Shown here: positions 1-34,653 of the stretch, piece after piece | How the letters are laid out: every line of letters starts with the position of its first letter | How positions within the stretch are numbered: position 1 is the first letter of the stretch | IMG/VR virus record: IMGVR_UViG_2917398303_000004 | Coordinates: 1-40,414 of that record | Reading direction: 5' to 3' (one strand) | From: a virus | Lineage: Duplodnaviria > Heunggongvirae > Uroviricota > Caudoviricetes | DNA: 40,414 nucleotides | Position numbers and translations under genes: made by a program | Notes under the pieces: model-generated | What the model saw: only the letters and a program-made list of their open reading frames with translations | Databases searched by the model: none | Told to the model about the DNA's origin: nothing

Positions 1-120
1 TTATATCACAGCAAACCCATGTGATGTCTCAATCACCAGGCTGTTAGCCGTAACTCCGCAGATCATATCAACATTCAGCTTTTTATCTACGTAGTCTTTT
101 GCTGGACTTGGAAAACCCAT
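1..120 (-). CDS. Short UmuD/S24-like N-terminal fragment (39 aa, MGFPSPAKDYVDKKLNVDMICGVTANSLVIETSHGFAVI)
   Basis: Own translation of the reverse complement of 1-120 (ATG at 120-118, TAA at 3-1); GFPSPAxDY motif resembles UmuD just after its Cys-Gly cleavage site; LexA box 19 nt upstream. Confidence 0.35.
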   Translation of the reverse strand: MGFPSPAKDYVDKKLNVDMICGVTANSLVIETSHGFAVI

Positions 121-137
121 AGAGCACACCTCACAAA

Positions 138-157
138 TACTGTTTATGCATACAGTA
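138..157. promoter_or_regulatory. Putative LexA (SOS) box TACTGTTTATGCATACAGTA
   Basis: Matches CTG-N10-CAG / TACTG(TA)5CAGTA consensus; palindromic; sits just upstream of the minus-strand short ORF. Confidence 0.55.
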
Positions 158-329
158 CTCTACATCTTGGCTATCGATCAACTTTGGTGATGATGCTAGA
201 CTTGTGAAATATCCTAAAAGAGAGGGCTACGGCTGCTACTCTTTCAAGAATATGCCGTTCTTAAATCAAAGTTAACGTTGCTCTATTGCAGCGTTTTTGT
301 TACTTAAAATTCATTGATACGGGTGTAGA

Positions 330-1439
330 GTGAGCAAAAGAATCGAGTTTGCAAACACGATACGAGGCGTTGCCAGCATGGTTGTTATGTTGGCTCATTA
401 CATAATATCGTTTAATGCCTTCTCTGGTGGCTATGGAGGCCTCCCAAAGATAGAAGGAGGTGTTTTTGATTATGCCTCTGGCCTGTTAGGTTTTGGGATG
501 CCAAGTTTCAGTTACGGAGCATTTGGTGTTGCTCTATTTTTTTTAGTTAGCGGCTTTGTAATACCATTATCTCTAACAAAATTAACAACTCAGCGGTATG
601 GTATACTTGCCTTCATGGTTTCACGAGTTCTAAGGATATGGCCCGTATATGTAATTGGTTTTTCCATATCTATGCTATTCCGATGGTTGTCATTCAATGG
701 CTCAGAACTTAGTGACGCCTACAACATTTATGATGTCATATACCACCTAACTCTTTTCAGGGATTGGATTGGCGGAATGCCTTTAGATGGTGTTGGCTGG
801 ACGCTTGAAATTGAGATTAAATTCTATCTGCTATCAGCAATATTTGCTTATGCGACGGTAAAAGGTAAGCAGTACATTACGATCGTTGCTATGGCAGGGG
901 CGTTTGCTGGGTACTACTTTGGCGTTCAGACGCCTATATATTTTATATTCCCGCACAGCATCCTGTATTGCTTCCAGTTCATACTGTTCATGACCATAGG
1001 CACTAACTTATACTTACTGTACGCTGGAGTGATCAGCAAGAACAAGGCCATACTATGGATAGGGGTGTCGTTAGGTTCATTTATTTATGTTTGCCCTCCT
1101 GATTCCAAAGTTGGATATCTTGTCGCATTTTTAGTGTTCCTGTCATGTTATGTCGCAAGAGATAGCTTTAATGGAGGTGCGATAACATCTTTCTTTGCAA
1201 AGATTAGCTACCCAATGTACGTTGTGCATGCTCTTTTTGGATATGTGACAATGTGGTACATGATAAATCTTGGTTTAAACACCTACGTCGCCCTGATTTT
1301 ACAAATATTGATGACAATATCGATATCATACTTAATGCATTTGTATGTAGAGATCCCCTCCCAAAAATATGGAAAAATCGCGTCTGACTTCATAACGGGT
1401 AGAAGGAAGGTAATTCCTGCTGGTATGGCTGTATCGTGA
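330..1439 (+). CDS. Acyltransferase family 3 integral membrane protein (O-antigen acetyltransferase-like lysogenic conversion candidate)
   Basis: 369-aa multi-TM protein, N-terminal R-G-x-A...LAHY motif typical of acyltransferase_3; GTG start; AT-rich relative to neighbours. Confidence 0.7.
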   Translation: MSKRIEFANTIRGVASMVVMLAHYIISFNAFSGGYGGLPKIEGGVFDYASGLLGFGMPSFSYGAFGVALFFLVSGFVIPLSLTKLTTQRYGILAFMVSRVLRIWPVYVIGFSISMLFRWLSFNGSELSDAYNIYDVIYHLTLFRDWIGGMPLDGVGWTLEIEIKFYLLSAIFAYATVKGKQYITIVAMAGAFAGYYFGVQTPIYFIFPHSILYCFQFILFMTIGTNLYLLYAGVISKNKAILWIGVSLGSFIYVCPPDSKVGYLVAFLVFLSCYVARDSFNGGAITSFFAKISYPMYVVHALFGYVTMWYMINLGLNTYVALILQILMTISISYLMHLYVEIPSQKYGKIASDFITGRRKVIPAGMAVS

Positions 1440-1446
1440 TAAGTAA

Positions 1447-1466
1447 GGGCCAGTGGTTTCTGGCCC
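1447..1466. terminator. Stem-loop between convergent acyltransferase and tail-fibre genes (GGGCCAG-N6-CTGGCCC)
   Basis: 7-bp perfect inverted repeat in the 34-bp gap between convergent stops. Confidence 0.4.
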
Positions 1467-1473
1467 TGCCTTA

Positions 1474-1917
1474 CTAAAAATTACCCTCTGACAGGAATGA
1501 ATAGGTTCCAGGCCCACCAGTAATGTTACACGTCCACGCTTTAGGCTGACCAGAGGTAGGATTACTATTGACTACACGCTCACCTTTTACCCATTCACCA
1601 GTGGTGGGAACGGATGCTCTTTTAAATTCAGTTTTTTTATAGGGAACTTTGTAATATGGTGTTCCCAAAATCATCAAACTAGGATCACAAATTAGCGCGG
1701 AGCCAGTGCCAACCTTAGAAAAGGATAACTGAATATCAGTTGCATCGCCTGGTACTTTTAAACAAATGCTTTTATAAACCCACGCATTACTTCCACCAAC
1801 TGGCACTGTTGCATCTTCTGAAAAATCACCGTTAATTGCCAATCGCAATTTGGTGGGGTTACCAAGGTCATTAACCCAAGCCCCGAACCAGACAAAATTA
1901 CTCCTCAGGAACGCCAC
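1474..1917 (-). CDS. Tail fibre C-terminal segment, in frame with and directly downstream of the 2029-3645 tail-fibre ORF
   Basis: Same reading frame as upstream ORF, separated by a single TAA (2029-2031) and 37 sense codons; GTG start at 1917. Confidence 0.45.
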   Translation of the reverse strand: MAFLRSNFVWFGAWVNDLGNPTKLRLAINGDFSEDATVPVGGSNAWVYKSICLKVPGDATDIQLSFSKVGTGSALICDPSLMILGTPYYKVPYKKTEFKRASVPTTGEWVKGERVVNSNPTSGQPKAWTCNITGGPGTYSFLSEGNF

Positions 1918-2028: not shown

Positions 2029-3645
2029 TTACCATTCAAGTAGATTTCTGTCGGCAAAATTTCTATTGAAACTCGCACCATCAATATCAATAAAATGACT
2101 TGTGGATGGGTTCTCTATATTCCCATTCGACATATTTCCAAGATAGTTAACGGTGTTTTTTGAATTCGAACCGATATGCAATGGTGAATTTACTTGTGAA
2201 TACTTATTGCTTTTATATAAAGCGAGTAAATCATTAACCTTCGAAGTATCAAGTATCTGAGTTTTCTCAATGCTCAAGTTAGAGGCAAAGTTAGTAAAAA
2301 CAAATGAATTATTTTGTATTGTAGGAATGGTAAATCCAATTGGTGTAACATGCGAGTTTTTAACAGAAACGCATTGATTTATATATGGAAGGTCTAAAAC
2401 TAAGGTTTGCGTATTTAGATTAGATAGCAGATGAATATCTGATCTAACTAATACAACCTCTGGGGCCTGATAAGTTATTCCTAACTCACAGTTGGCCTCA
2501 TAATAGTTACTATCAAGATTAAGTGACTTGCAATTTACAGCAACTATTGCAGCCTTTTTATTCCCCTCCATGTTATTATAATTAACATTTATACTTAATC
2601 CTGCAAGCGGTGACGATGGGGTAATGGTAACCGCTACTCCATTATTGGCGTAAAATTTATTTCTTTGAACGTTAACATTATTGGCAATCCCAGTTATTTT
2701 GATGCTATCGCCAAAATTAGAGAAAACGCGACACCCTGTTATATCGTTACTATAGCCACCAAGATCAATGGCATATCCAATTGTGTTTGTAACAATAATA
2801 TTATCAATTTTAGTGTGATTACTCTCAGGAAGTAAAACTCCTTCCGTTAATCCATTACCATTAATACTGAAATCACTTAGCTCCAAAAAAGCAATTTCAC
2901 CAGATTGCTGGGTTATAAACGGAGATCCAGCCTTTGCTGAAAATAATGATGATTGATATGGCCCCTGACCTTCAATTTTTACTAGTTTGTCTTTTATGGT
3001 AATCCCAGGATCAACGTTAAACCCTCCCGCTGGTATTATAAACTTTGTTGCGCCAGAAGCATCATCAATAGCTTTCTGGAATGCTGCTTTGTTCTGAGCC
3101 CCAGTATTCCCGACTTTAAATCCGTAGTCAGAAAGCGTTACCAAATCCACAGCGAATTTGTCAGATACCGACATCGAAACGCCATCATTAAACTTAGGTG
3201 TATATGTAACGATGTCAGAACCCTTAATGGGGTTGTCACTGATTAAGTCTCCCCTCAGTGTAGCATCGCCAACACTCAACCATGCACCTGGCCCTATACC
3301 GCCTGTAGACGCAGGTGTTGACCCAGGAGGAACTAACTTAGGTAACAGCCCATCCCATCTGTAATATTCGCCATCACCATCAGGGAGCTTCCAGCGTAAT
3401 GCCTGATCTGCACGAGTTAAATCTGCACCGTCCTGGAATGAATCCATCATCGTCCATCCCATGGAGGATAGTTTTTCCTGATAACGCTTTTCCATTCCAT
3501 GCCATGTCAGTCTGGTCTTACCAAATCTATCAGGACATGTCTCATTTGATTGATCGTTTGAAAGGTAATCGAAGTTCTGCGCATTATCATACAAATCTTT
3601 TGCGGCAGAAGACCCCAGCGGATTGCCGGTGTTATAAGTAGTCAT
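2029..3645 (-). CDS. Tail fibre / tailspike protein (beta-helix-like repeats)
   Basis: Start at MTTYNTGNPLG with GAGG Shine-Dalgarno 6 nt upstream; repetitive N/G/S-rich beta-strand-like sequence; last gene of tail operon. Confidence 0.65.
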   Translation of the reverse strand: MTTYNTGNPLGSSAAKDLYDNAQNFDYLSNDQSNETCPDRFGKTRLTWHGMEKRYQEKLSSMGWTMMDSFQDGADLTRADQALRWKLPDGDGEYYRWDGLLPKLVPPGSTPASTGGIGPGAWLSVGDATLRGDLISDNPIKGSDIVTYTPKFNDGVSMSVSDKFAVDLVTLSDYGFKVGNTGAQNKAAFQKAIDDASGATKFIIPAGGFNVDPGITIKDKLVKIEGQGPYQSSLFSAKAGSPFITQQSGEIAFLELSDFSINGNGLTEGVLLPESNHTKIDNIIVTNTIGYAIDLGGYSNDITGCRVFSNFGDSIKITGIANNVNVQRNKFYANNGVAVTITPSSPLAGLSINVNYNNMEGNKKAAIVAVNCKSLNLDSNYYEANCELGITYQAPEVVLVRSDIHLLSNLNTQTLVLDLPYINQCVSVKNSHVTPIGFTIPTIQNNSFVFTNFASNLSIEKTQILDTSKVNDLLALYKSNKYSQVNSPLHIGSNSKNTVNYLGNMSNGNIENPSTSHFIDIDGASFNRNFADRNLLEW

Positions 3646-32496: not shown

Positions 32497-32838
32497 CTAC
32501 CCTCTTGCAGCTGCTGTACGCATTGCACGACTGAACAAATCAACACGGTCAAGATCTTCCAGGCTTGGTACGTCCACCAGCAGTGCGCCGCGACGCTTGG
32601 CAAAGTAGTCGGCAACGAATGACGTGTTGGAAATGTCCTCCATCGCTTCCAGCTCAGTGACCTCAAAGAAACGACAACCGTTTTTCTCGTAAAGGTTGTT
32701 GTTGAATTGGGTTTCTGACATGCCCAACGCACCAGCCATAGCCTGACGGCCTCCGGGGTACGCCTTACACATCGCTTTCACCACGTCTTTCAGGGTTTGC
32801 TCTACCATCTTTTTTTTCCTTTGGTAGTTATCAATCAA
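32497..32838 (-). CDS. cII-like regulatory protein (HTH)
   Basis: 113-aa ORF immediately downstream of cro; AMAGALGMSETQF HTH-like segment. Confidence 0.45.
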   Translation of the reverse strand: MIDNYQRKKKMVEQTLKDVVKAMCKAYPGGRQAMAGALGMSETQFNNNLYEKNGCRFFEVTELEAMEDISNTSFVADYFAKRRGALLVDVPSLEDLDRVDLFSRAMRTAAARG

Positions 32839-33097
32839 CTAAAAGTTGCGTACTGTTGGGCTGTACCGGTAATCCATCATGTTTATTTGGGTAAATATCT
32901 GGTCGTAATTGATGTGGCGTTACAGTCCATCCACCCCACTGACATAACTGAATTACCCTTTCTGAAGGGACTCTGTTTTTCGAAATCCAGTTCGCAACTG
33001 ATTGAACTGACTGAAATTCGAATTTTCTTGACACTTCAGAAATTGAGCCAACCGCTTTAACAGCTTTAGCGGTGACATTCTTGTGTTGATCTGACAT
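32831..33097 (-). CDS. cro: Cro-like repressor (YdaS/Cro family HTH)
   Basis: Start at MSDQHK with GGAG Shine-Dalgarno 5 nt upstream; divergent from cI. Confidence 0.6.
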   Translation of the reverse strand: MSDQHKNVTAKAVKAVGSISEVSRKFEFQSVQSVANWISKNRVPSERVIQLCQWGGWTVTPHQLRPDIYPNKHDGLPVQPNSTQLLVD

Positions 33098-33128
33098 GTT
33101 ATCTCCAGTGACTAAGCTTGCATCAATA

Positions 33129-33141
33129 CTACTTATAGTAG
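33129..33141. promoter_or_regulatory. OR operator palindrome CTACTTATAGTAG
   Basis: Inverted repeat CTACT-N3-AGTAG in the cro-cI intergenic region; same motif recurs at 34000-34012. Confidence 0.55.
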
Positions 33142-33166
33142 CAATTATTGGCAACTTAAAATAGAA

Positions 33167-33886
33167 ATGACAACTATGCCTTGTGCGCTTAATCTTCTAC
33201 TTATGGTGGAAAATGCTAAATACAAAGACTTTGCCGACAGGCTAAACAAGTCTCTCCAAGAGCAATCAATTGGAGTTAAAGAATTGTCAGAGTTCAGTGG
33301 TGTCTCATATGAGATGGCGCGACGCTATACTCTTGGTACTGCAAAACCACGAGATGAAAAGATGATTCGAATTGCAGACAGGCTTGCCGTATCCCCTGCT
33401 TATCTTGATTACGGGGTACCTGTTAATGGCGGTGATGCGCCCGCTACCGGGACGGTTAGAATTCAGCAATTGGATGTACATGCATCAGCCGGTTCGGGAT
33501 ATATCAATCAACCGTTTCCAACGATTGTCAGCTCGATAGAAATACCAGAAGATAGGATTTTCGAATTGTTTGGCCGGAGAAGCTTAGATGGTATCGTGAT
33601 GATCAACGTAGATGGCGACAGTATGATGCCTACGTTGTGCCCTAAGGATCTGCTCTTCATTGATAGTAAAGTTGAGCAATTCAGTGGAGATGGTGTTTAC
33701 GTGTTCAACTTCGAGGACAGTACCTTTGTAAAAAGACTACAAAAAGTTAAAGGTCGTCGTCTGGCTGTCCTATCAGACAATGAACACTATCCTCCCTTCT
33801 TCATAGAAGAACACGAAATGAATGAGGTTTACATCTTCGGCAAACTTATCAGATGTTTACCTCTGAAAATGATAGAGTTTGGATAA
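33167..33886 (+). CDS. cI: CI-like repressor (HTH plus S24 LexA-type autopeptidase domain)
   Basis: N-terminal HTH, C-terminal GDSM Ser motif and downstream Lys; possibly leaderless start at 33167. Confidence 0.8.
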   Translation: MTTMPCALNLLLMVENAKYKDFADRLNKSLQEQSIGVKELSEFSGVSYEMARRYTLGTAKPRDEKMIRIADRLAVSPAYLDYGVPVNGGDAPATGTVRIQQLDVHASAGSGYINQPFPTIVSSIEIPEDRIFELFGRRSLDGIVMINVDGDSMMPTLCPKDLLFIDSKVEQFSGDGVYVFNFEDSTFVKRLQKVKGRRLAVLSDNEHYPPFFIEEHEMNEVYIFGKLIRCLPLKMIEFG

Positions 33887-34574: not shown

Positions 34575-34653
34575 GCGGCATTAGCTCAGTTGGATAGAGC
34601 AACGGCCTTCTAAGCCGTGTGGGTCGCAGGTTCGAATCCTGCATGCTGCACCA
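34575..34653 (+). tRNA. tRNA-Arg (anticodon UCU) with encoded CCA
   Basis: Hand-folded cloverleaf: 7-bp acceptor, D-arm, anticodon stem ACGGC/GCCGT with loop CTTCTAA, 7-nt variable loop, T-arm GCAGG-TTCGAAT-CCTGC; resembles argU-type tRNA. Confidence 0.8.

Follow-up and report, generated by a model that had tools for sequence, protein, structure and literature searches.

We analysed a 40,414-nt stretch of DNA (positions 1 to 40,414 of the IMG/VR record IMGVR_UViG_2917398303_000004, a Caudoviricetes virus; hereafter the window), which represents a lambdoid prophage, and examined the short minus-strand open reading frame (ORF) at its left edge. This ORF is the N-terminal third of a 106-codon gene that a single nonsense change (G→T, GAA→TAA) has disabled, and hence a recent pseudogene. 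The complete reading, in which the edge carries a nonsense-inactivated, SOS-controlled prophage accessory gene for a HumD-like analogue of UmuD', appears very probable to us. The edge feature would accordingly be a recently inactivated accessory gene under SOS control, rather than a new peptide gene or the remnant of a umuDC operon.

A nonsense change in a 106-codon gene

The ORF opens with an ATG at 120-118 on the minus strand, runs through 39 sense codons (4-120; MGFPSPAKDYVDKKLNVDMICGVTANSLVIETSHGFAVI) and closes with a TAA at 3-1, and its product begins MGFPSPAKDYVD and ends GFAVI. An earlier sequence-only reading of the window had described a minus-strand ORF of 39 codons ending at a TAA, and the sequence bears this out. 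The first three bases of the window are the stop codon of the ORF, so the window conceals the part that lies downstream. We read this part from the source contig (GCA_004745285.1 / PDIB01000034.1; locus L003), in which window position 1 corresponds to L003 9672. Past the TAA, the frame stays open for two codons and continues with an ATG and 63 more sense codons (64 in total; L003 9474-9665), followed by its own stop at L003 9471-9473.

Codon-level DNA alignments with Escherichia coli Z142-3 and mip270 placed the TAA (codon 40; 1-3, minus strand) opposite a GAA (Glu40), and DNA alignment with two intact E. coli alleles (L086 and L088, both 98% identical) revealed the same exchange. This premature ochre stop is the single disabling difference from L086 and L088. 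Since the intact alleles have GAA where the TAA sits and the frame continues beyond it, the ORF represents a disabled 106-codon gene. The remaining differences from L086 and L088 are scattered substitutions, mostly synonymous, indicating that the nonsense mutation is recent. Both of these alleles are found at the same yecA/leuZ position of the chromosome, with neighbours of the same types (tailspike, acyltransferase, and yecA). A Logan read-set assembly (L092) showed an identical split into 39 and 64 amino acids (aa). Other degraded alleles of the family (P0025, P0026, P0045, P0049, and P0054) are broken at other places, and P0026 is a C-terminal fragment from another allele. The window copy is most simply read as a prophage accessory gene that was dispensable and has undergone ordinary decay.

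The gene is the last one at the left end of the prophage, distal to the integrase, and lies about 145 bp from the attachment (att) junction. Beyond these ~145 bp, we found the 3' 57 nt of the transfer RNA (tRNA) gene tRNA-Leu(UAA) (leuZ), its terminator, and yecA. The homology to E. coli chromosomes spans tyrP and yecA, extends into tRNA-Leu and then stops, and the integrase is at the far end of the window; we therefore placed the prophage edge in tRNA-Leu. The prophage/host junction falls in the anticodon loop of tRNA-Leu(UAA), ~346 nt to the left of window position 1 (with L003 9269-9671 between). ARAGORN detected no intact tRNA at the junction, where just the 3' 57 nt of leuZ are present, and an Rfam scan of the 1-kb junction region returned nothing meaningful. 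The att repeat was not found at the right end of the window, and attR lies beyond it. Both ends of the window coincide with ORF ends, namely the stop of the truncated gene (1) and the stop of the integrase (40414). The boundary was thus set at a gene end, cutting off ~346 nt of the true prophage end, and the window leaves out two-thirds of the gene together with the att site. As the flank homology is at ~90% identity, we conclude that the host is Escherichia-like but not a typical E. coli.

Protein family and predicted LexA control

A protein search yielded 54 homologues from Enterobacteriaceae, nearly all of 104-110 aa, with those of this length starting MGFPSPAxDYxE; the few shorter or longer homologues are fragments or fusions. 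The intact allele P0001, which is 98% identical to the reconstructed gene, matched phrog_3469 ('UmuD-like protein'; E = 6e-42, residues 1-105), whereas the window ORF spans only residues 1-39 of this family, owing to the TAA. The window gene therefore belongs to an already catalogued phage family related to HumD of phage P1. Temperate phages carry the family gene, including mEp390 (gp26), Eeyore, and Flotzy; gp26 of mEp390 is annotated as a 'UmuD-like protein' similar to HumD, and adjoins attP. The family profile matched UmuD in the PDB (E = 8.7e-6, residues 2-97 against 25-137) and, in hhalign, P1 HumD from end to end (98.2% probability, E = 3e-14, 1-106 against 1-129).

An AlphaFold2 model of the intact allele P0001 reached a predicted local distance difference test (pLDDT) score of 77.5. 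In a Foldseek search against the PDB, the top 22 matches were all the LexA C-terminal domain, UmuD, UmuD', or the lambda CI C-terminal domain (template modelling score ~0.5-0.56), and the model is thus predicted to adopt the S24 β-fold. The profile alignment contains a 10-12-residue gap that removes the G-D-S-M (Ser60) loop, and it pairs Lys97 with Ala62, a nearly invariant residue; in an alternative ungapped alignment, Ser60 stands opposite Ala37, which is invariant. The family alignment has no position at which all members share a Ser or a Lys.

The most conserved part of the family is the GFPSPAxDYVE arm, which is common to UmuD' proteins. The sequence-only reading had noted that the first residues of the ORF mimic UmuD immediately after its cleavage site, and had proposed that a umuD-like gene under LexA control might have left a remnant at the prophage edge; the profile, fold, and att-junction evidence supports this proposal. 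It had also reported that the ORF departs from UmuD after some 20 residues, which is so, but this proved to be a trait of the whole family rather than a sign of decay in the window copy. The parent gene encodes a 106-aa HumD-like mimic of UmuD' that never had an N-terminal pro-peptide, and not a cleavable UmuD. Temperate phages of Enterobacteriaceae commonly carry the family, which is predicted to be controlled by LexA and lacks the protease dyad.

Upstream of the gene, TACTGTTTATGCATACAGTA at 138-157 (plus-strand reading) forms a near-consensus LexA box with palindromic ends, and was the sole perfect TACTG-N10-CAGTA in the 40.4-kb window in a pattern scan. When one mismatch was allowed, at least two matches appeared in 16 of 100 shuffled sequences, and the one-mismatch scan by itself is weak evidence for a LexA box. 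When scored with a position weight matrix derived from E. coli SOS boxes, the box reached 24.0 bits, as compared with 11.2 bits for the runner-up site in the window and a mean of maxima of 12.5 bits (highest, 19.5 bits) in 200 shuffles. The LexA site proposed from the sequence alone thus withstood this check, but its distance from the ORF, given as 19 nt, was measured as 17 nt (121-137, minus strand; TTTGTGAGGTGTGCTCT). A LexA-like box was present in 69 of the 72 related loci. As in the window, it lies close to the ATG (15-43 nt 5') in 18 loci, which constitute a proximal class; in the 51 loci of a distal class it lies 173-323 nt 5' of the ATG, mostly at 253-266 nt. The other three loci lacked a LexA-like box, one of them being cut by a contig end. 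This conservation among related loci, with the position retained in the 18 proximal-box loci and P1 humD, argues strongly that the predicted LexA box is functional.

A Shine-Dalgarno sequence, GAGGTG (126-131, minus strand), is located 5 nt 5' of the ATG, and the related loci and P1 humD have a purine-rich motif of the GAGG/GGAG type in the matching place. By eye, we assigned a putative sigma-70 promoter (152-181, minus strand) composed of a -35 hexamer TTGATC (181-176), an 18-nt spacer, and a -10 hexamer TACTGT (157-152), the last of which falls inside the LexA box. The proximal-box relatives carry a TTGAC or TTGATC hexamer 15-18 nt 5' of the LexA box. From these sequence features, we infer that LexA binds the box and that the promoter is used.

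Proposed function, partners, and rival explanations

In an intact copy, LexA bound at 138-157, overlapping the putative promoter, would keep the gene silent in the lysogen, and the removal of LexA upon DNA damage would de-repress it. The product would be made directly in a processed, UmuD'-like form, for which RecA-mediated cleavage is not needed; such a bypass of cleavage would explain how the family could lose the Ser/Lys protease dyad. As with P1 HumD, the protein would pair with a UmuC-type polymerase of the host or with other UmuD' partners in the SOS response. By analogy with HumD, we infer that the intact protein serves as a ready-made UmuD'-type subunit with a corresponding partner and activity. 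The window copy can give at most a 39-residue N-terminal arm peptide. If the family does provide ready-made UmuD' activity, prophages could raise the damage-induced mutagenesis of their host without the checkpoint of RecA cleavage.

Several results weigh against this reading. No umuC was present among the genes called in the flank, and none was detected in the window by tblastn with a UmuC query sequence. Past position 1, where the sequence-only reading had advised looking for the rest of a umuDC-like operon, the gene ends without a Y-family polymerase gene (umuC, mucB, or rumB) directly downstream, being followed by ~145 bp, the tRNA-Leu fragment, and yecA. A consensus promoter scan called no sigma-70 site 5' of the ATG (its lone minus-strand match is within the ORF), and the promoter assigned by eye fits just 7 of the 12 consensus positions. 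The two TAA-bearing assemblies (NCBI and Logan) may come from the same reads or the same strain. At the protein level, the Foldseek E-values of the P0001 model against the PDB were weak (0.03-0.7), and neither the reconstructed 106-aa protein nor two E. coli homologues matched the Pfam Peptidase_S24 domain (PF00717) at E ≤ 1; a 42-aa ORF gave no S24 match in Pfam either. With no Pfam match and with its Ser/Lys catalytic dyad lost, the family is not an active S24 peptidase. The NCBIfam HumD model (NF051876) scored 32.3 bits against a cut-off of 120, with only residues 1-27 aligned, and the UmuD model scored 22 bits against a cut-off of 110. Because these scores are far under the cut-offs, we class the gene as a short, divergent sister lineage of HumD, rather than as a HumD equivalog or an S24 peptidase. 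With ~12 residues around the catalytic loop missing, the family may bind its partners differently from UmuD', and the accessory role with DNA polymerase V (Pol V) is suggested by the HumD analogy.

Most relatives possess an additional gene. In L001, L004 (mEp390, locus 2761-3000), L005, and ~50 of L006-L085, a conserved 79-aa ORF (phrog_3893), absent from the window, separates the LexA box from the HumD-like gene; its stop codon either adjoins the ATG of this gene or overlaps it. In mEp390, this ORF is unannotated, and an opposite-strand 42-aa ORF (gp25) is annotated instead. The AlphaFold model of the 79-aa protein (pLDDT 90) has a winged-helix-like topology, and winged-helix DNA-binding proteins are its best, though weak, matches. 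When 1.84 billion representative proteins were searched with a profile, the 79-aa domain was almost always stand-alone, with a length of ~79 aa. Rare fusions of the 79-aa and HumD-like domains (P0186, P0278, P0299, and P0024) have junctions that look like out-of-frame translation, and these polypeptides are probably frameshifts or assembly errors. We considered the descent of the two genes from a fused winged-helix/S24 protein and rejected it, as only frameshift-like fusions (P0186, P0278, and P0299) were found and solid support was lacking. A phage dinI homologue, also absent from the window, is near the HumD-like gene in 11 loci, mostly in divergent orientation (L004, L006, L007, L017, L018, L022, L026, L038, L060, L061, and L063), and the dinI/HumD-like intergenic region contains two tandem LexA boxes in four loci (L006, L007, L060, and L061).

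For the role of the intact family, the principal alternative to a UmuD' analogue is a catalytically dead S24 decoy that would act on the targets of the RecA* co-protease (LexA, prophage CI, UmuD) or on the RecA filament, tuning SOS and prophage induction; the window copy would be nonsense-inactivated all the same. The deleted catalytic Ser loop, the Ala62 opposite Lys97, and the lack of an adjacent umuC are compatible with a decoy, for which the S24-type CI repressor of the prophage itself would be a possible target. The proximity of dinI, which encodes a RecA-filament binder, in 11 related loci, with LexA boxes common to both genes in some, and the co-transcription in most loci of a conserved 79-aa winged-helix-like protein with no counterpart in umuDC suit a decoy better than a Pol V role. 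However, P1 HumD, the closest characterised relative, is recorded as complementing UmuD' (note in the P1 database record), and the arm common to UmuD' proteins is the most conserved part of the family. We regard the decoy as a credible but less likely rival; if true, it would add to the phage-encoded proteins that modulate the SOS response. Still more doubtful is a reading in which the phrog_3469 family is not a Pol V subunit but supplies one of the two proteins of an undescribed module triggered by the SOS response, of which the window would hold a decayed, partner-less copy. In such a module, the LexA box (~70% of related loci) may drive the conserved, often unannotated 79-aa protein, to which the dead S24 domain, starting precisely at the Gly of the LexA/UmuD cleavage site, would be coupled in translation. 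The two genes look like a LexA-type protein divided in two, at the gene level, where it would be cleaved, and their products could have LexA, CI, or RecA* as targets instead of UmuC. The part worth following is the family with its unnamed 79-aa partner, and not the window copy.

Two further explanations concern the stop itself, and both seem very improbable. The 39-residue product might itself have a function, as a micropeptide induced in the SOS response that bears the N-terminal arm of UmuD' and competes or mimics. In favour of this, the window copy has an intact LexA box, Shine-Dalgarno sequence, and ATG, and keeps the nearly invariant GFPSPAxDY motif. Yet the truncated allele occurs in just one genome assembly and one read-set assembly, the other alleles are ~106 aa or broken at different places, and the intact downstream two-thirds, with its mostly synonymous differences, indicates that the mutation arose very recently and argues against a short form maintained by selection. 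Alternatively, the locus could be functionally intact, with the stop being a sequencing or assembly error, or being overcome by readthrough or by re-initiation at Met43. This would fit a single base difference that leaves the frame and the downstream codons preserved, with an ATG (Met43) 6 nt past the stop. Against an error, the TAA is present in both the NCBI assembly and the Logan read-set assembly; against readthrough, TAA is the least leaky of the stop codons. As for re-initiation, the ATG of Met43 lacks a Shine-Dalgarno sequence at the proper distance (AAGGG is 1 nt ahead), and the product would lose the conserved N-terminal arm.

Neighbouring genes and comparison with known systems

Divergent from the HumD-like gene is an acyltransferase-3 family gene (330-1439, plus strand; Pfam PF01757, E = 6e-19) of the O-antigen type, which is probably an accessory gene for serotype conversion. 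A terminator-like hairpin with a T-run (274-295, plus strand) is located just 5' of this gene, and a promoter-like site (314-343) overlaps its listed GTG start (330), so the real start or the regulation of the gene may differ from the ORF listing. A tailspike gene is also near the HumD-like gene, and a 147-aa ORF without a Pfam or PADLOC match (1474-1917, minus strand) lies between the acyltransferase and tailspike genes. The PADLOC defence models matched none of the HumD-like protein, the 79-aa partner, the acyltransferase, and the 147-aa neighbour. Megablast of window positions 1-1500 gave no match among phage genomes and three partial matches at 83-88% identity among E. coli complete genomes, indicating that this region has no near-identical reference there.

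Farther into the prophage, we identified a CI-like repressor gene (HTH_3 and Peptidase_S24; 33167-33886, plus strand; S24 match 2e-17), a divergent ORF of the YdaS family (Cro-like; 32831-33154, minus strand), and a tRNA-Arg(tct) gene (34575-34653, plus strand). A Gifsy GfoA-type antirepressor was considered for the edge gene and rejected: the Gifsy operons have the order dinI-antirepressor-irsA, the paper on them makes no mention of UmuD-like genes, and the present prophage has a cleavable CI-type repressor.

Among the known systems, E. coli UmuD/UmuD', the accessory subunit of Pol V (peptidase S24, PF00717), has the GFPSPAxDYVE arm in common with the window family, for which the S24-like fold and SOS (LexA) control are likewise predicted. 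In contrast, UmuD has a 24-residue N-terminal pro-peptide with a Cys-Gly cleavage site, the Ser60/Lys97 dyad, a Pfam S24 match, and umuC downstream, none of which is found in the window family. The members of phrog_3469, the family of the window gene itself, have 105-107 aa, adjoin attP, and are predicted to be controlled by a LexA box. In the majority, including mEp390, the 79-aa ORF (phrog_3893) separates the box from the gene, whereas the window and 18 related loci lack this ORF and have the box beside the ATG; the window copy retains codons 1-39 only.

The resemblance extends to P1 HumD, which PMC7092418 calls an 'already activated, shorter version of UmuD'; UmuD' complementation in SOS mutagenesis is known for P1 HumD only, according to the note in the P1 record and to the title under which PMC4713147 cites McLenigan 1999. 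HumD has 129 aa, as compared with 106 aa in the window family, which lacks ~12 residues spanning the catalytic-Ser loop and has other loops shortened too. The window family resides at the att-proximal end of lambdoid prophages, in contrast to the plasmid-prophages P1 and N15. Unlike P1 HumD, the window copy is nonsense-inactivated, and the function of its family is suggested by analogy. The P1 protein and the 'UmuD-like' proteins N15 gp26 and those of phiKO2 and HK639 start, like the window family, with M-GFPSPAxDYVE, in which the Gly is the residue after the UmuD cleavage site. In the multiple alignment (L090 and L091), P1 HumD and N15 gp26 also have in common with the window family an acidic C-terminal DDxPVI tail that UmuD lacks. 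The LexA site of P1 humD is annotated 19 nt 5' of the ATG (17 nt in the window gene), its Shine-Dalgarno context is very similar, and it has a divergent LexA-regulated neighbour, lxr, as the window gene also has a divergent neighbour. Both genes are orphans without a cognate umuC.

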